A stretch of DNA of 64,000 bases from an uncultured SAR86 cluster bacterium. Lineage in GTDB: Bacteria; Pseudomonadota; Gammaproteobacteria; Magnimaribacterales; D2472. A program made the translations under genes and the position numbers. The notes beneath the pieces were generated by a model. It was not told the DNA's origin, made no database searches, and was given only the letters and a program-made list of their open reading frames with translations. This document shows, one piece after another, positions 14,394 through 22,419 of this stretch (position 1 is its first letter; the number at the start of each line of letters is the position of its first letter). The DNA lies in NCBI GenBank assembly GCA_902632555.1, contig CACPCZ010000001.1, positions 98,572-162,571 on the forward strand, written 5' to 3'.

Positions 14394-15311
14394 CTATTTT
14401 TTTGAACAATACATGCATTCTGGTAATTCACTAAATTTTTCTTTTTGATATAAACCAATCCTTCGACATTTTTTACATTCTGCTCTTATTTCTTTTTTAA
14501 TTATGTCCACGTATTTCATAGAAGAGAAATTGAAATTCTCTCCATGTTCGTCCGTAAGATTATTTTTTTCATAATCAAGTTTTTTTCTTCTATATTCTTT
14601 TGCTCTGCAAGTTTCTGAACAGAACTTTTGAATATTCCCTTTTGATGAGTCGACAAAGTTTGATGAGCAAAATTTACAAGATTTTAGTTCAGGATTATTT
14701 TTTGAATATTTATAAAGAGCAATTGCACCTCCAAGACATGTTGAGAAAATTCTTATTTCGTTTTTTTGAGTATCAATAAAATTAATATTTCTATTAAAGT
14801 GCTTATTAAGAAAGAATTCATTAACTGACCATTTCGCACCTACACTTCTTTTTGGATCTAACAATACTTTCCACTCAGCTAATAATTCAGAGTAAATGAG
14901 TTTTTCATATAATTTTTCTTCATTAAAATCACCTGAAAAATTTTCCGGAAAACTCTCAGCAAAATTTGCATATATGGATTCGGTAGTTGTATCTATAATC
15001 GGCAGTTCAGAAGCAAACTTGTGTGTGGCTGTTAGTAATCCATATTTATTAACAATATTTAAAAATTCTTTAGACTCGAAGAAGTCAATCTTATTAATTT
15101 CAACTTCTTTTTGCGCTTCACTAATTTCTATATAAAACTCTGCAATATTTAATTTTTTGAATATAAAACTATTTTTGTCGATAGCATCAATGGTTGAGTG
15201 TCTAAATTTGGATCCATTTCTAATAGTTACACTTGTATTTATTGTATAACCACTTTTATGCACAACATTATATATTGCGGGGTTGGTCTTTAAATTTATC
15301 TCTTTTTTCAT
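14394..15311 (-). CDS. Hypothetical protein with CGNR-like zinc finger and a second C-terminal Cys4 ribbon
   Basis: CKFC..F.D.S....KFCSETCR...YRRKK, then CKKC...CMYC. Confidence 0.65.
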   Translation of the reverse strand: MKKEINLKTNPAIYNVVHKSGYTINTSVTIRNGSKFRHSTIDAIDKNSFIFKKLNIAEFYIEISEAQKEVEINKIDFFESKEFLNIVNKYGLLTATHKFASELPIIDTTTESIYANFAESFPENFSGDFNEEKLYEKLIYSELLAEWKVLLDPKRSVGAKWSVNEFFLNKHFNRNINFIDTQKNEIRIFSTCLGGAIALYKYSKNNPELKSCKFCSSNFVDSSKGNIQKFCSETCRAKEYRRKKLDYEKNNLTDEHGENFNFSSMKYVDIIKKEIRAECKKCRRIGLYQKEKFSELPECMYCSKK

Positions 15312-15525
15312 AAATTTTTATTAAAAATATCCACTTGTGAATATTAATTACGCTTATTTTACTTTTAAGAATAGCATATTATAAATATTCGTGCATAATT
15401 AATCACGTATAAAACATTGCTTATTCATGCAAAGTACTCTATCATTGTCTTTTTATCATTATAAAAATTATTTATTTGTGATTAATAAATAAAATTATTA
15501 TAGCTTTTAAAGCAGGAGAACAAAA

Positions 15526-15684
15526 ATGAAAATCACAAGAGATATAACCACTCTATTAATAAACAATTGGTTTAAAAAATTTAATGAGGATTTTAACTAT
15601 GGAAAATATAGTTACCTTTCCTCCGTTAAGAGATTTAAAGTCTATGATTACTCTTCCAATAAAATGGTTGAGTGTAGATCTTGA
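15526..15684 (+). CDS. Possible unannotated 52-aa ORF
   Basis: AGGAG at 15514-15518 before ATG 15526; MKITRDITTLLINNWFKKF...VECRS; overlaps the next gene. Confidence 0.35.
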   Translation: MKITRDITTLLINNWFKKFNEDFNYGKYSYLSSVKRFKVYDYSSNKMVECRS

Positions 15685-16291
15685 ATATTGTCGAGATGAG
15701 CTTGATAGAAAATTTTGTGTTACAGAAATCGCATTTTATGACATTTATGCAAAGCATGAGGTTTTTAGAACTTATGTCAAGCCAAAAGATAATTTCTTAC
15801 TTTCAAGAAGAATGCAAGAGAAGGGAATCAGTATTAATGATATTAACTCTTCTCCAACTATGGAAGAGCTAGATCAGCTTTTAAGAACATTCTTACCAAG
15901 TTGTATATTAGTTTTTTGGAATGCTGAAAATGATCTTAGACATTACCCTAAATTAAAAACATATTCATATGGAACACGTTGTGCAATGAAAAGATACAGT
16001 GAACGGCATGGGCCATATAATTTTGATTGGGGAACTCATAAATTTCTTAAGCTTAAAGATGTAGCAATTGAAGAAGGATTCGTTCTTGAAGAAAACGAGA
16101 GGTTTCATCAGGCACTAACAGATGCAAGGGCAACCGGATATATATGGGATATTCTTGATAAAGAAACACTTCCATCTCCAATTCCCTTAGATCTTGTTTT
16201 GAGAGAAGATGTTGAAAAACTTCTGCTTGAATCACAAACTTTAATTGCCGACTTTAAAGAGGAAGAAAAAGAAGACCCCATTCCATTTTAG
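15599..16291 (+). CDS. DEDDh (DnaQ-like) 3'-5' exonuclease with acidic SSB-like C-terminus
   Basis: ExoI VDLEY, ExoII WNAEND, ExoIII HQALTD; ends EEEKEDPIPF; ATG 15599 follows GAGGA. Confidence 0.8.
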   Translation: MENIVTFPPLRDLKSMITLPIKWLSVDLEYCRDELDRKFCVTEIAFYDIYAKHEVFRTYVKPKDNFLLSRRMQEKGISINDINSSPTMEELDQLLRTFLPSCILVFWNAENDLRHYPKLKTYSYGTRCAMKRYSERHGPYNFDWGTHKFLKLKDVAIEEGFVLEENERFHQALTDARATGYIWDILDKETLPSPIPLDLVLREDVEKLLLESQTLIADFKEEEKEDPIPF

Positions 16292-16311
16292 GAATAGGGC
16301 CAACTAATAAA

Positions 16312-16356
16312 GTTGTGTGATAAAAACACTAACCAAGTTTAATTTTATCACACAAC
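16312..16356. repeat. Perfect 14-bp inverted repeat with 17-nt spacer
   Basis: GTTGTGTGATAAAA (16312-16325) / TTTTATCACACAAC (16343-16356), followed by ATTTTT. Confidence 0.85.
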
Positions 16357-16378
16357 ATTTTTACATAAGGAAATTAAA

Positions 16379-16702
16379 ATGCAGTTTGATAAAAAACAAC
16401 AAGTTTTCATATTATTAGAAGAAATTAGAAAAAAGGTTGGCTATTATGCAAACCATTCTTTAGAAGATTTCAGACGTGTTCCAGTTAAGACATTAGTTTG
16501 GTTGGCGCTTGATAATTCTTTTCTGGAATTACAAATAAAACAGTTAAAAGATAAGCTCGAAGAGAATAAAATTTTTTTTGATTTTGAAGTAAAAGCTCAG
16601 AATGACATTATCCCTGATGACGAAGATTATTTAGAAGCAGGGCTAAAAATTCTCGATGATCTTGAAGATATGGAAATATCAACTAGATATCCAAAGAATT
16701 AG
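16379..16702 (+). CDS. Hypothetical protein (coiled-coil-like, acidic C-terminus)
   Basis: 107-aa ORF preceded by TAAGGA RBS; no recognisable motif. Confidence 0.65.
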   Translation: MQFDKKQQVFILLEEIRKKVGYYANHSLEDFRRVPVKTLVWLALDNSFLELQIKQLKDKLEENKIFFDFEVKAQNDIIPDDEDYLEAGLKILDDLEDMEISTRYPKN

Positions 16703-16800: not shown

Positions 16801-16883
16801 ATGCAAAGGGGTGGCTTAATTAGCCTGAGATCTTACGAAACTCTTTGAACCTGATCAACACAATAGTTGCGGAGGAATTGCAT
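16801..16883 (+). ncRNA. TPP riboswitch (THI element)
   Basis: GGGGTG...CTGAGA...ACTCTTTGAACCTGATC-AAC/GTT-GCGGAGGAA; P1 ATGCAA/TTGCAT; upstream of thiamine-type uptake genes. Confidence 0.92.
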
Positions 16884-18980
16884 ATGTATATCAGAAAAAG
16901 ATTTTTATTTTTATTACCTTTAATTTTTTCTTTATCAGTTTCATCTAATGATATTGAAGAGATAATTGTTCAGGGCGAATATAGAGAAAAATCTATTAGT
17001 GATGAAGATTCTAGTATTTCTATTATTCAATCAGAAAAAATAAAATCACAAGCCATAAAACATTTTCAACAACTTTCTTACCTTGTTCCAAATTTAAATT
17101 ATGCCGCCTCAGATTCTAGAGCTAGGTATTTTCAAATTAGAGGAATAGGGGAAAGATCTGGATATCAAGGCACGCCAAATTCTTCAGTAGGATTTTTGAT
17201 TGATGATATTGATTATTCTGGACAAGGTGGAATTGCAACTTTATTTGATGTGGATCAGGTTGAAGTCTTTCGTGGGCCACAAGGATCGAGAACAGGAGCA
17301 AATGCTTTAGCAGGATTAATTTATATAAAAACAAAAGATCCAACAAATCAATTTGAAGGAACTTCTGAAATTACTCTTGGAGATTATGGAACCCAAAATT
17401 TAGGTATTGCTTTTGGCGGCCCTATGAAAAATGAAAAACTTAAATATCGTCTCGTATTAAGAACAGATTATGCAGATGGCTTTAGAAAAAATATTTTTTT
17501 AAACAAGTCAGACACTTCTAAAAAAGACGAGCTGACATTACGATATAAATTAAATTGGGATCTTAATGAGACTACAGAAATTAATTTTCTTATTTCAAAA
17601 GTTGATATGGATGATCCAGCAGACATATGGACAATAGATGGCAGTTTAAACACTTTATCTGATCGTCCAGGAATGGATTCGCAAGAAACAGATTCTTATG
17701 GAATAAAAATTACAAAAAACTTTAACAATTTTGATCTACAAAGTTTTACAAGTGTGACCAACACAGATGTAAATTTTAGTTACGATGCTGATTGGGGTAA
17801 TTCCGAGTCACATTTTCCATATATTTACGATTATTTTTCTGAAACACTCAGAAAAAGGGATACTTTTAGCCAAGAAATACGTTTTCTGTCCAAAAATACA
17901 GATTTTTCACAAAAAAATCCGTTTGAGTGGGTTTTTGGTTTTGATTTTAGTGAATTAGAAGAAATGAATGTAACAAGAGATGATGGAATTTATGGTGATC
18001 CATCTGATCCATACGGCCCTTATGAAAGTGAATCAGTAGTTTCAAGGAATTATGAAGCTGAAAATTTATCATTGTTCGGAAACATTGATTACTTCCTTTC
18101 AGAAAATTATAAGTTAGCTTTTGGATTAAGATGGGAAAATTGGGACTCAAAATATAATGATTCAAATCAAGAATCATTCAATCCGTCTGACAACATGAAT
18201 GGAGGAAAAATTTCTCTGATTAAAAATAATGATAATTCAAATATTTATTTTTCAATTGCACGAGGATATAAACAGGGTGGGTTTAATCTTGGTTTAGATG
18301 CAACTGATAATTCAATAAAAGACTCTTTAATATATGATCCAGAATTTTTGACTAACTACGAAATCGGATTAAGCTCAAATAACAATAACTCAATCCTGAA
18401 TTATTCAGCAGTTTTTTTCTTTTCAAAAAGAGAAGATCAGCAAGTTTTAATTTCAAGGCAAGTAGATCCAACTGACCCAAATACTTTTTCATATTTGACC
18501 CAAAATGCAGCAGAGGGTGAAAATTATGGATTAGAAATTAGCTCAAATTATTTTGTTAGAGATAATCTAAATCTGTATGCTAATTTCGGCCTGCTTAAAA
18601 CAAAAATAAAAAATTGGGAATCTAGAAGTGACCTAGAAAATAGAGCACAAGCTCATGCACCAGAAAGAAACTTTTCATTAGGCGCAAACCTAGCATTTAA
18701 GAATAATTTTTATTTAAAGATGGATATTAATGGGAAGAGTAGCTTTTTTTACTCTGATTCACATAATAATAAATCTAAAAGTTATAAGCTTGTAAACCTT
18801 TCATTAGGCTATACAAAATCAAATTTTTCAACAGATATATGGGTAAGAAATCTATTTGATGAATATTACTCTACTAGAGGTTTTTTCTTCGGAAATGAGG
18901 CTCCAAATTTCGTTGATACTTTGTATAGAAGACAAGGTGATCCAAAAAATATTGGCATCTCTTTAAGATATGATTTTTAA
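16884..18980 (+). CDS. TonB-dependent receptor, probably for thiamine
   Basis: Signal peptide, EEIIV TonB box, plug VEVFRGPQG, C-terminal YDF; under TPP riboswitch; start ATG 16884. Confidence 0.9.
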   Translation: MYIRKRFLFLLPLIFSLSVSSNDIEEIIVQGEYREKSISDEDSSISIIQSEKIKSQAIKHFQQLSYLVPNLNYAASDSRARYFQIRGIGERSGYQGTPNSSVGFLIDDIDYSGQGGIATLFDVDQVEVFRGPQGSRTGANALAGLIYIKTKDPTNQFEGTSEITLGDYGTQNLGIAFGGPMKNEKLKYRLVLRTDYADGFRKNIFLNKSDTSKKDELTLRYKLNWDLNETTEINFLISKVDMDDPADIWTIDGSLNTLSDRPGMDSQETDSYGIKITKNFNNFDLQSFTSVTNTDVNFSYDADWGNSESHFPYIYDYFSETLRKRDTFSQEIRFLSKNTDFSQKNPFEWVFGFDFSELEEMNVTRDDGIYGDPSDPYGPYESESVVSRNYEAENLSLFGNIDYFLSENYKLAFGLRWENWDSKYNDSNQESFNPSDNMNGGKISLIKNNDNSNIYFSIARGYKQGGFNLGLDATDNSIKDSLIYDPEFLTNYEIGLSSNNNNSILNYSAVFFFSKREDQQVLISRQVDPTDPNTFSYLTQNAAEGENYGLEISSNYFVRDNLNLYANFGLLKTKIKNWESRSDLENRAQAHAPERNFSLGANLAFKNNFYLKMDINGKSSFFYSDSHNNKSKSYKLVNLSLGYTKSNFSTDIWVRNLFDEYYSTRGFFFGNEAPNFVDTLYRRQGDPKNIGISLRYDF

Positions 18981-18986
18981 AATTAC

Positions 18987-19559
18987 ATGACTCTATTTAT
19001 TCTAGAAAGTGTAGCAGTCATTTCTGCAATATTGTATCTGATTTTAGCAGGAAAAGAAGATGTAAAGTGCTGGTATGCGGCTATATTTAGCTCTTTGCTT
19101 TATATATATATTATGTATCAAGCTGGCTTGATAATGGAATCAATCTTACAAATATTTTATGTAGTAATGGCAATTTACGGATGGTTGCAGTGGAACAATC
19201 TTATAAATAAAAATTCAACACTGAGGATTAGAAGATGGAAAAAAATTAATCATTTATATTCTCTTTTTTCAGTAATAATTTTGGCGGTAATATCTGGAAT
19301 TTTATTAGAAAAATATACTAAAGCAGCATTACCCTTTTTGGATGCATTTACAACATGGGGAGCAATAATAACTACATACATGGTTGCAAAAAAAATAATA
19401 GAGAATTGGATTTATTGGTTTGTCATAGATTCGATCTCAATTTATTTATTTATTTCTAGAGAACTTTATTTAACTGCTTTTTTATTCTTAATATATTTAA
19501 TAATAATAATTTTTGGATATAAATCTTGGAGAAAAAAATTACTAGAATCAAATGGATAA
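18987..19559 (+). CDS. Pnu-family vitamin transporter (PnuT-like, thiamine)
   Basis: LQIFY...YGW.QW, PFLDAFTT, ENWIYWFVID motifs; specificity inferred from riboswitch. Confidence 0.88.
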   Translation: MTLFILESVAVISAILYLILAGKEDVKCWYAAIFSSLLYIYIMYQAGLIMESILQIFYVVMAIYGWLQWNNLINKNSTLRIRRWKKINHLYSLFSVIILAVISGILLEKYTKAALPFLDAFTTWGAIITTYMVAKKIIENWIYWFVIDSISIYLFISRELYLTAFLFLIYLIIIIFGYKSWRKKLLESNG

Positions 19560-20301
19560 AATTTTAAAGGAGCTTAAAAAACATAAAGTTTATGTTGAAG
19601 ATTTATTTATTTTAAGAAATGGTGAAACCTCAAATACGTACCTAGCCAAACAGAATGATAAAAAAATTGTTTTAAAAATTTTCAAAAAAAATTACCTAAA
19701 AATTAACATCAATTCGTATTTAGAAATTAATGTACTTGAACAGTTAATTCAGAATAAAATTTTTCCGAAGGTTATTACACACAACCAAGAATTGGGTATT
19801 CTAATTTATGAATATGTTGAACCTCTCTCATATAAAAAAAATAAGAAATTTATTTCAATGCTTGGCAATCAGATTAAAAAAATACATGGCGTAAAAGTAG
19901 AGAAAGATTTTTATTGTTTTGATGAACAAATAGAAAAGTACAAAAGTATTTTAGGTAAAAAGTTAGATAAAGATTTTCAAAGACTACATAAATTAATTAC
20001 TAGAGCAAAGCAATACAAATCTAAAATCTGTTTTTCACATAATGATCTAAACAGAGATAACATTATTCACAACAAAGAAATTTATTTCATTGATTATGAG
20101 TATGCATCTTTAAATAATATTTTTTGTGATTTAACCCGAGTAATCCAAGAGTACTCACTTAATAATGCAGAAATAAATACTCTTACAAATAGCTATGGTA
20201 TTCAAAATTCAAAAGATGTAATGGATCAAATAGAAATATGGACAAATATAAATACTCTTGTAGATAAAATTTGGAGTGAGATGATTTTAAAGTCACTCTA
20301 G
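19552..20301 (+). CDS. Choline kinase/APH-like phosphotransferase, probable thiamine kinase
   Basis: GETSNTY loop, VLK, HNDLNRDNI and IDYEYA motifs; operon context. Confidence 0.75.
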   Translation: MDKILKELKKHKVYVEDLFILRNGETSNTYLAKQNDKKIVLKIFKKNYLKININSYLEINVLEQLIQNKIFPKVITHNQELGILIYEYVEPLSYKKNKKFISMLGNQIKKIHGVKVEKDFYCFDEQIEKYKSILGKKLDKDFQRLHKLITRAKQYKSKICFSHNDLNRDNIIHNKEIYFIDYEYASLNNIFCDLTRVIQEYSLNNAEINTLTNSYGIQNSKDVMDQIEIWTNINTLVDKIWSEMILKSL

Positions 20302-20429: not shown

Positions 20430-20984
20430 TTAAGCAATAAAGGCAATAAATAAAGTAAAAATTACAATAACTATGGGTACAATTTTATCAATTTTTATAA
20501 CAATATCGTCTTTTTCAGGGAATTTTGGCAATTTTAATGAAAAAATAGTATATCGTTCATCTTCTTTGTACTCATAACTTGAAATGTTACGATCTGTACT
20601 CATGGGTACATTCACTTTAATCATATTATCTTTTTCATCTATACTTTCATCCAATTCTATATCATTATGCTCAGATATGTGCTCTCTTTCAGCAATTTCT
20701 TCACTATTTAGATTAGAATCTTCTTTAATTGGATTTTCAAAGACTTTCTCCTTTTCATCCTGAACACTTTCTGCTTCTGAACTATTTAATGTAATTTTAT
20801 TTAAATCAGATAGAATTTCGTCTCTTTTTATTATTGCTTCGGTTAGATTAGTAGTTTCAAGAGATTTCTTTATAAAATTTTTACCAATTATCTTAGATTG
20901 CTCTTTAGAAAGTCTTTTTTGAATGAAGTAAATATCCTTATTTTTACCCCTAAGTACTAAGTATTTTTCGTTTTTTGTACTCAT
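20430..20984 (-). CDS. Tail-anchored protein with integrase arm-binding-like (DUF6538-like) N-terminal domain
   Basis: YLVLRG...YFIQKR......IIGKNFIKKSLET.NL.EAI..RD pattern; acidic linker; C-terminal hydrophobic helix IVPIVIVIFTLFIAFIA. Confidence 0.65.
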   Translation of the reverse strand: MSTKNEKYLVLRGKNKDIYFIQKRLSKEQSKIIGKNFIKKSLETTNLTEAIIKRDEILSDLNKITLNSSEAESVQDEKEKVFENPIKEDSNLNSEEIAEREHISEHNDIELDESIDEKDNMIKVNVPMSTDRNISSYEYKEDERYTIFSLKLPKFPEKDDIVIKIDKIVPIVIVIFTLFIAFIA

Positions 20985-21081
20985 AATGTACTCACAATGT
21001 TAAACAATTAATTTTAAATTTGCAATCTTTTGTACCCATTTTTTTCTTTTCTACTATTTTTTTTCCAATTTGTACTCATAA
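20473..21081. repeat. Cluster of eight TGTACYCA motifs
   Basis: Forward copies at 20567, 20595, 20976, 20987, 21031, 21071; reverse copies (ATGGGTACA) at 20473-20481 and 20602-20610. Confidence 0.9.
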
Positions 21082-21222
21082 TATCTTGTATTTTCACTTA
21101 TATAAGTTTTTTTTTGAGTATATTTTATGTTTTAACTATTATTGCTATTAGTATATTTGTTGTTGTGTTTAATTTTTTTTGTTTTAACATTAGTATTCAC
21201 AAATTATTTGGGGAGTAACTAT

Positions 21223-22419
21223 ATGAAAATATTATGTGTTTTATACGATGATCCTATTTCTGGGATGCCAGAGAGTTATGCTAGAGATGATTTACCTAAG
21301 CTTGATAAGTATCCTGATGGAATGACTTTACCATCTCCTAGTTCTGTGGATTTCAATCCAGGTGAACTTTTAGGTTGCGTATCAGGTGAGCTAGGTCTAA
21401 GAAAGTTTTTAGAAGATGCTGGTCATACTTTGGTTGTAACTTCAGATAAAGACGGAGAAGGTTGTACAGCTGACAAAGAACTAGTTGATGCAGACATTGT
21501 TATTTCTCAACCTTTCTGGCCTTACTATTTAACTAGAGACAAGATGGAATCTGCTCCTAATTTGAAGATGGCCATTACTGCTGGTATTGGCTCTGATCAC
21601 GTAGATTTGCAAGCAGCAATGGACAATAATGTTGATGTTGTAGAAGTTACATATTGTAATTCGAGATCAGTTGCTGAACATATTGTCATGATGATTCTTT
21701 CTATGGTGAGGGACTATCATAATCAACACAGAATTGTTAAAGAAGGTGGATGGAATATTGCCGATGCTGTTCAACGCTCATACGATGTTGAGGGCATGCA
21801 CGTCGGAACAGTTGCTGCTGGCAGGATAGGTATTGATATGCTTAGAAAAATGAAACCTTTCGATGTGCATTTGCATTACTTTGATATTCATAAACTGCCA
21901 GACGAAGTCGAAGCGGAATTAAACCTTACCTATCATGATTCAGTAGAGTCCCTTGTTTCAGTATGTGATGTTGTGAATATTAGCTGTCCTCTGCATCCAA
22001 AAACTGAACATTTATTTAATGATGAATTAATTAGCAAGATGAAGCGAGGAGCTTACATAGTAAATACTGCAAGGGGTAAAATTTGTGACAAAGATGCTAT
22101 TGCAAGGGCGTTAGAATCTGGTCAGCTAAGTGGTTATGCCGGCGACGTATGGTTTCCACAACCAGCTCCTAATGATCATGTTTGGAGATCAATGCCCAAT
22201 CATGGAATGACTCCACATACATCAGGAACTTCATTATCTGCTCAAGCAAGATATGCTGCTGGGGTTAGAGAAATTTTAGAATGCTTCTTTGAAGGTAAAC
22301 CTATTAGAGAACCATACTTAATTGTTCAAAATGGTGATTTAGCAGGCATGGGAGCACATTCATATACCAAAGGCACTGCTACTGACGGCTCAGAAGAGGC
22401 AGCAAAGTATAAAAAATAA
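21223..22419 (+). CDS. fdh: NAD-dependent formate dehydrogenase (metal-independent)
   Basis: KILCVLYDDP, LLGCVSGELGLR, AGIGSDHVD, AAGRIG, NTARG, GDVWFPQPAP, TPHTSG; GGGGAG RBS before ATG 21223. Confidence 0.95.
   Translation: MKILCVLYDDPISGMPESYARDDLPKLDKYPDGMTLPSPSSVDFNPGELLGCVSGELGLRKFLEDAGHTLVVTSDKDGEGCTADKELVDADIVISQPFWPYYLTRDKMESAPNLKMAITAGIGSDHVDLQAAMDNNVDVVEVTYCNSRSVAEHIVMMILSMVRDYHNQHRIVKEGGWNIADAVQRSYDVEGMHVGTVAAGRIGIDMLRKMKPFDVHLHYFDIHKLPDEVEAELNLTYHDSVESLVSVCDVVNISCPLHPKTEHLFNDELISKMKRGAYIVNTARGKICDKDAIARALESGQLSGYAGDVWFPQPAPNDHVWRSMPNHGMTPHTSGTSLSAQARYAAGVREILECFFEGKPIREPYLIVQNGDLAGMGAHSYTKGTATDGSEEAAKYKK

Follow-up and report, generated by a model that had tools for sequence, protein, structure and literature searches.

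The window, by which we mean the whole 64,000-nt stretch of DNA analysed here, encodes on its minus strand a 184-aa protein that is a real, conserved and domesticated integrase module. Its N-terminal domain is homologous to that of integrases found at tRNA-Glu, the repeats at its gene are identical to repeats in the attL regions of those integrases, and domain and sites are conserved together and lost together. Furthermore, a second group of the same sites is placed by dnaA and a parS-like site, and those within glyS are under selection at the level of codons. Sequence comparison leads us to an overall prediction whose chances we judge to be even: the protein would be a captured integrase arm module that represses its own gene, is anchored in the membrane and tethers the origin region in three genera. 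In this model, the host kept the promoter, the arm-site array and the first domain of a tRNA-Glu integrase and joined them to a predicted membrane anchor. The cytoplasmic domain would bind phased TGRGTACA arrays and block its own promoter, so that the dose, and with it the number of anchors, would stay low. The tail would retain the protein in the membrane, and the sites adjacent to parS would draw the origin/parS region there, alongside ParABS. Since ParABS is still present, such a tether would be accessory.

The original prediction had described a basic head, an acidic linker, a hydrophobic C-terminal helix and the absence of a tyrosine-recombinase catalytic domain, and each of these traits is borne out. 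Residues 1-62 hold 14 K+R against 8 D+E and residues 63-125 hold 20 D+E against 7 K+R. The last 17 residues have a mean Kyte-Doolittle value of 3.12, whereas the other 17-residue stretches before the last 45 residues all score 0.2 or less. This tail is present in 43 of the 44 loci that we inspected among 53 of the tail type, the single exception being a gene cut by the end of its contig, and anchoring by the tail with the N-terminus in the cytoplasm is very probable. Pfam detects neither Phage_integrase nor SAM matches in the protein; the R-H-R-Y catalytic and core-binding domains are missing, and sensor domains, periplasmic or other, are absent as well. Contigs from RNA libraries of one study cover 20504-20989 in three runs and leave the gene uncovered in one of four runs, a weak form of evidence in that contigs give no strand, start or level. 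The features of the locus are collected in the table.

Table. Features of the arm-domain locus in the window (strand given relative to the window; -, minus; +, plus).
Feature	Position	Strand	Basis or remark
Gene of the predicted tail-anchored arm-domain protein, 184 aa	20430..20984	-	ORF call, homologs, weak cover by RNA contigs
DUF6538 domain of integrase arm type at the N-terminus, ~aa 1-66, with three strands, one short and one long helix	20787..20984	-	Pfam, model, homology to integrase N-terminus
Acidic variable linker, ~aa 67-166; low model confidence, three internal sites	20487..20786	-	
Hydrophobic helix at the C-terminus, aa 167-184, the predicted membrane anchor	20433..20486	-	Kyte-Doolittle 3.12
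TGRGTACA over start codon	20976..20983	-	Likewise in 42/44 loci
TGRGTACA 11 bp upstream, directly beyond candidate -10 box	20987..20994	-	Spacing 10-11 bp in 39/44 loci
Candidate sigma-70 promoter, TTGCAA-17 bp-TAACAT, 8/12 matches	20997..21025	-	By eye
TGRGTACA immediately upstream of candidate -35 box	21031..21038	-	
TGRGTACA at -94, sharing helical phase with the other sites	21071..21078	-	
Inverted, abutting site pair in linker-coding region	20595..20610	.	
Internal site in linker-coding region	20567..20574	-	
Internal site, reverse orientation, start of tail-coding region	20474..20481	+	
NAD-dependent formate dehydrogenase, divergent neighbour that the system does not always include	21223..22419	+	

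The only Pfam family matched by the window protein is DUF6538 (PF20172), at 17.7 bits (E 0.003) and thus under the cut-off of 27 bits, and scores for the protein range from 17.7 to 20.3 bits. Relatives pass the cut-off, a Rieske fusion (P0122) with 28 bits and an integrase (P0123) with 37.5 bits, and DUF6538 is matched at E<=0.05 by 30 of 30 aligned domain pieces from host proteins, fusions and integrases. These matches and the integrase homology support the arm-type N-terminus that had been recognised by eye. The domain model (pLDDT 82.5) shows three strands and a long helix, the topology of arm-type domains. In a ranking of 48,161 chains, the lambda and HPI arm domains took ranks 1, 2 and 4 (lambda Int 1z1b, Z 4.8, rmsd 4.1, 53 residues aligned; 2wcc, Z 4.8, rmsd 4.8, 56 aligned; HPI 3jtz, Z 4.6, rmsd 2.5, 53 aligned), although Z scores of 4.6-4.8 are weak and were equalled by unrelated folds. 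Foldseek returned no match to the domain model at E<=0.001, and fold searches with the full-length model (pLDDT 57.6) were uninformative. It is the sequence link to integrases that carries the arm-domain assignment, the fold evidence being weak. A search for longer proteins with residues 1-70 gave 78 candidates, none of them significant; this search is insensitive, since known integrases escaped it. DUF6538 was not mentioned in the literature searched, and none of the matches listed described an arm-domain/anchor system, subscription papers lying outside the reach of these searches.

The parent integrases account for both the domain and the sites. Integrases with the domain in two genomes (G001 and G232) adjoin the 3' end of tRNA-Glu at an att remnant and have two T(A/G)GGTACA copies directly upstream. 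A metagenome scan provided 43 integrase loci, 31 with the gene start and 26 of them distinct; in these 26 upstream regions a tRNA-Glu-like core is found in 21, TGRGTACA in 12 and TRRGTACA in 15, with a coding background of 9 in 37 kb. The copies follow the two promoter boxes, -35 and -10. In other subclades the repeats at equivalent places are TGGACACA, TGGCTACA or TGGACTCA, and hence site and domain vary together: short direct repeats flank the att core of the parent integrases and change with the domain across the 26 regions. Two integrases (L150 and L151) even possess the tandem of the host gene, 11 bp apart and over the start codon. Because the integrase loci share the site, the layout and the start-codon tandem, the host gene resembles an attL promoter that was captured together with the operator array and the first domain. 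At the host locus itself we found no att core or integrase, and viral contigs contained no relative of integrase P0123. The suggestion that the repeats are cognate sites is supported by their identity with the attL repeats, and from these sequences we predict with high confidence that the protein binds TGRGTACA directly. The arm repeats of the tRNA-Glu integrases L150-L189 and L082-L085 (downstream of tRNA-Glu) differ by subclade as TGGGTACA, TGGACACA, TGGCTACA, TGGACTCA, TGACTACA and TGGATACA, a natural recognition-code series.

In the window, TGTACYCA occurs 12 times against 1.93 expected and a highest shuffled count of 5, and the genome of 1.04 Mb holds 32 copies overall. On the strand of the gene the site reads TGRGTACA, usually with A before and A or T after it. 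Eight copies lie at 20474-21078, one of them over the start codon, exactly as had been noted. The motif was picked after inspection of the sequence, yet it recurs at 44 of 44 homologous loci, where 232 sites fall within 27 kb (-150 to stop) versus 5 in 118 kb of flanks. Upstream sites are co-oriented without exception (167/167) and their spacing is periodic at 10.2-10.5 bp (R ~0.7); the start codon carries a site in 42 of the loci, and the internal sites number 65 in linker or tail and 0 in the domain. The candidate sigma-70 promoter between these sites was not listed by the promoter scan, which has a threshold of 9/12. Based on this arrangement, the protein probably represses its own promoter. 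A membrane-bound, autoregulated regulator of the divergent formate dehydrogenase had been one of the original options; the self-regulatory half fits the site layout, and control of fdh is not supported as a general role.

To assess conservation, a domain profile was run over 266 genomes of the order (genera are coded g1-g22 and genomes G plus a number); gene content and genome sizes of 1.0-1.4 Mb suit the SAR86 label. It gave strong single matches in 53 tail-type genes, carried by 36/41 genomes of g1, 4/32 of g5, 7/9 of g6, 3/9 of g7 and 3/25 of g9, as well as matches in 10/11 g3 genomes and two full integrases. These counts are not independent events, as the carriers are related. Homologs of similar length number 1163, the gene is intact and single-copy in the 53 genomes, and the domain has a median dN/dS of 0.15 with a maximum of 0.41 (159 usable, unsaturated pairs of 903). 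A functionless integrase/att remnant in decay, which had also been considered, would suit a Pfam score under the cut-off, the frameshifted copy in G056 and the tail-only copy in G070. The number of homologs, the 53 intact single copies, the low dN/dS, the conserved tail and a locus without att core or integrase refute this idea, to which we give practically no credence. The persistence of the tail in all but one truncated locus and the dN/dS of the domain instead support a domesticated arm domain with a C-terminal anchor. The frameshifted gene in G056 (L054) retains four upstream sites, and its frameshift may be a sequencing artefact because glyS of that assembly also has stops.

Co-conservation of the tail, the TGTACYCA cluster and the linkage to fdh had been proposed as a check. 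Tail and site cluster persist together (43/44 and 44/44 loci), and the linkage is partial, with fdh upstream in 27/44 loci, proteorhodopsin in 3/44 and other genes in 14/44; fdh linkage was rejected as a defining trait. A thiamine-kinase-like gene lies downstream in 34/44 loci. A protein dedicated to regulating the divergent formate dehydrogenase would explain the 27 loci but not the 17/44 with other upstream genes; moreover, the sites crowd around the start of the arm-domain gene, at most ~135 bp from it, and not around fdh, and fdh persists in G070 (g1), where a 56-aa tail-only ORF occupies the place of the gene, the domain is lost and no sites are present. We consider such a role very improbable. 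Elsewhere in the window, a TonB-dependent receptor, a PnuC-like transporter and the thiamine-kinase-like gene (16845-20301) likely form a vitamin uptake operon convergent with the gene. Between the peptidase and TonB receptor genes (14394-16702, GC 0.28) lie three poorly annotated ORFs of 305 aa (weak zf-CGNR), 235 aa (exonuclease) and 107 aa (without match).

A search for tandem sites matched 72/266 genomes, 68 of them in the family of the window genome, and revealed a second cluster of sites near the origin that is newly found here. In the window genome it lies at C1:17918-19184, with dnaA at ~C1:12470. Near the recF/gyrB junction is a 16-mer palindrome (C1:15812-15827 in G000, L070) that is parS-like by comparison with the parS consensus; a parS-like site was found in 50/51 origin regions, and the second cluster is 1-3.4 kb from the one near dnaA. 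The suggestion that the protein tethers its locus to the membrane gains support, but the telling sites are ~100 kb away and outside the window, beside the parS-like site and dnaA, rather than at the gene.

In g1, glyS contains an inverted pair in 36/41 genomes, which are all 36 with glyS assembled; the five genomes without the pair are exactly the five without an assembled glyS. Among 12 g1 glyS genes, 74 fourfold codons specify an invariant residue and only 4 are codon-invariant, all of them inside the two sites and including the rare CCC. The codon comparison rejects the possibility that the amino acids force the glyS sites. Similarly, three g9 non-carriers have the same W-V-Q residues written in other codons; the g9 carriers (3/3) have 4-5 origin sites (glyS, dnaN-recF) and the g9 non-carriers (0/7) none. 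The g3 genomes, whose domain is fused to a Rieske protein, have a pair at the convergent plsC/gyrB ends in 10/11 cases (3 seen directly, 7 placed by coordinates). Overall, 29 carriers have 55 sites in 220 kb of origin regions, whereas the 170 kb of origin region from 22 non-carriers contain none. G070, the g1 genome that lost the domain, is nested in g1 on the GlyRS tree, has no glyS sites and lacks both clusters.

Whole-genome lists place the sites further. Leaving aside the gene itself, pairs within 100 bp occur only at the origin region in G000, G071, G078, G080 and G006; G132 has two origin clusters and one other, G058 has one pair near tRNA-Glu, and G068 and G070 have no such pair. Each genome has only 2-5 sites at the origin and 4-8 at the gene, few in comparison with the nine peaks of RicO, which speaks against tethering. 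The distance from gene to origin is ~100 kb in g1, g6 and g9, ~280 kb in G068 and 350 kb in G006. Since sites are retained both at the gene itself and next to the origin/centromere, self-repression and origin tethering are the likely functions, and we rate the chance that the distant sites serve tethering as evenly balanced. The further genera g5, g6 and g7 speak against a universal tether role, as the origin pair is found in only 1/10 carriers examined there (G054; one region, G069, is partial). Only 14-28 kb separate the gene from parB in three g5 genomes, and the gene's own nearness may, as a guess, substitute for origin sites. Replacement of ParB/parS was rejected, ParB being present in 218/266 genomes, carriers included, and the parS-like site in nearly all origin regions. 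In G058, a carrier of g6 that lacks a tight cluster at the origin, 7/29 single sites fall in the 61 kb around parB and the origin (C3:224187-285468), an observation made post hoc.

The main rival to tethering is a membrane-bound transcription regulator only, which would repress itself and tune the dnaA-gyrB/glyS-plsC block by promoter occlusion or roadblock, with tethering as a by-product. The ancestral integrase sites abut -35/-10 boxes, as in the self-repressing IntS (PMC2951348). Some distant clusters precede genes in an operator-like manner, at the recF start in g9 and before small genes in G008, G036 and G047; in G008 (g3) there is no pair in the origin region and the four sites are ~45 kb away. 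Furthermore, a soluble GltD-like fusion has upstream repeats of its own. However, the distant sites occupy four different positions within 4.5 kb, among them the middle of glyS and the convergent ends of plsC and gyrB, which are not promoter positions; no single target gene is common to them, and the protein lacks a sensor domain. We regard regulation alone as unlikely, though a good deal less so than the other rivals. Clusters of 2-4 sites also lie near the starts of small or unrelated genes at L078:5647-5755, L080:5321-5352, L081:3006-3037, L075:4731-4798, L088:4767-4812 and L041:6053-6092; no copy of the domain was detected in the genome of L088.

A lesser rival is a defence decoy that binds the arm sites of incoming tRNA-Glu elements and either silences the integrase of these elements or keeps attP at the membrane. 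The TRRGTACA repeats of 15/26 integrase attL regions would provide targets, and the patchy spread in g5, g7 and g9 with changing neighbours would be in keeping with defence. Such a role leaves the codon-level selection inside glyS unexplained; in addition, arm sites of this kind persist next to tRNA-Glu in carriers G054 and G058, the sites of other integrase subclades differ, and the gene is near-core in g1. We find a decoy improbable.

The domain also occurs in other fusions. In g3 it precedes, in one fused protein, the Rieske subunit of petABC, which is Tat-anchored, and sites lie upstream. PetA in L032:5030-5899, L033, L034, L035 and L038 has an extra N-terminus of ~100 aa with the arm domain before the twin-arginine motif. 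A tree of only 69 columns groups the Rieske form with the tail form (92/96); an independent capture of the two is not supported, and from this grouping the tail was probably exchanged for another membrane anchor. In contrast, the GltD-like fusion, first seen as weak profile matches in 670-700-aa frames, is a separate capture (99/94). Here the domain forms the N-terminus of a soluble GltD-like Fe-S flavoprotein, whose gene opens a 2-oxoacid oxidoreductase operon ahead of the alpha gene and in many cases diverges from iscS. The fused ORF was resolved in 19/20 loci, and at least two AAGGTACA copies lie near its start in 15/19; the product is possibly a redox-linked, self-regulating enzyme. In closed genome G145, sites cluster only at the fusion's own gene, a thin control with n=1. 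The fusion loci (L130-L149, for example L130:2484-4550 and L135:2382-4388) span three families of the order, and G211 has three close AAGGTACA pairs away from the fusion gene.

Somewhat more tentatively than the overall prediction, we propose that this streamlined marine lineage turned parts of a mobile element into a second centromere-like system, with the integrase arm domain as a membrane-anchored origin tether, arm sites written into essential genes near parS by codon choice and a move to the Rieske protein in one genus. In that reading the tether went onto the Rieske subunit, and the cytochrome bc1 complex itself would hold the origin region. If true, a bacterium took both halves of integrase recognition, the domain and its DNA sites, for chromosome organisation, and the donor elements still exist for comparison. 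One self-regulating cassette would have been reused repeatedly, with the tail anchor, the Rieske subunit and the GltD-like protein, a binding site would be predicted for DUF6538, and a small-genome lineage abundant in the sea would gain a candidate origin anchor. The claim is directly testable because a 66-aa domain, an 8-bp site and one helix are easily rebuilt in E. coli.

The nearest known relatives are the tRNA-Glu DUF6538 integrases P0123 and P0165, with a homologous N-terminus (37-47% identity), the same repeat and the same start-codon tandem. The host protein differs from these in having no SAM-like or catalytic domain and no att core and in possessing a membrane tail, and its gene is single-copy, chromosomal and under purifying selection. 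The AP2/ERF and ApiAP2 domains are related to integrase arm domains and are likewise mobile-element-type domains in host use with the same three-strand-plus-helix arrangement (2gcc, Z 4.0; 6sy0, Z 3.9), but they are eukaryotic and soluble and are not known to be retained together with the att arm sites of the element. RacA with ram in Bacillus and RocS in Streptococcus are DNA-to-membrane anchors that aid segregation, and RacA needs DivIVA; their domains differ from those of the window protein, and we know of no mobile-element origin for either.

A survey of transmembrane transcription regulators describes the ToxR/CadC type as one DNA-binding domain, mostly helix-turn-helix, with a single TM helix (PMC10269533). 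The window protein shares this architecture and an operator-like site layout, with promoter repression predicted, but has no extracytoplasmic sensor; the word 'integrase' is absent from the main text of that survey. IntS of prophage KplE1 represses itself via arm-type sites that overlap the integrase promoter (PMC2951348); IntS is a full recombinase with TorI co-repression, whereas here the arm domain stands alone on a membrane anchor.

The closest functional precedent is RicO/ricS of Staphylococcus aureus, for which the preprint describes an N-terminal site-specific DNA-binding domain, a C-terminal membrane attachment and origin-proximal sites (bioRxiv 10.64898/2026.03.06.710092). The window protein unites a DNA-binding domain with a predicted membrane attachment in the same way, with sites near the origin throughout g1 (where glyS is assembled) and the g9 carriers, in nearly all of g3 and in one in ten g5-g7 carriers. 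Pfam and NCBIfam name no RicO, RacA or RocS family for it, and we liken it to RicO and RacA in function only; going by their descriptions, homology would not be expected. In RicO there are a coiled coil and an amphipathic helix, and its nine 18-bp sites/peaks span ~700 kb (bioRxiv 10.64898/2026.03.06.710092). The window protein would instead combine an integrase-derived domain and a predicted TM tail with 8-bp sites in two clusters, one of them autoregulatory.
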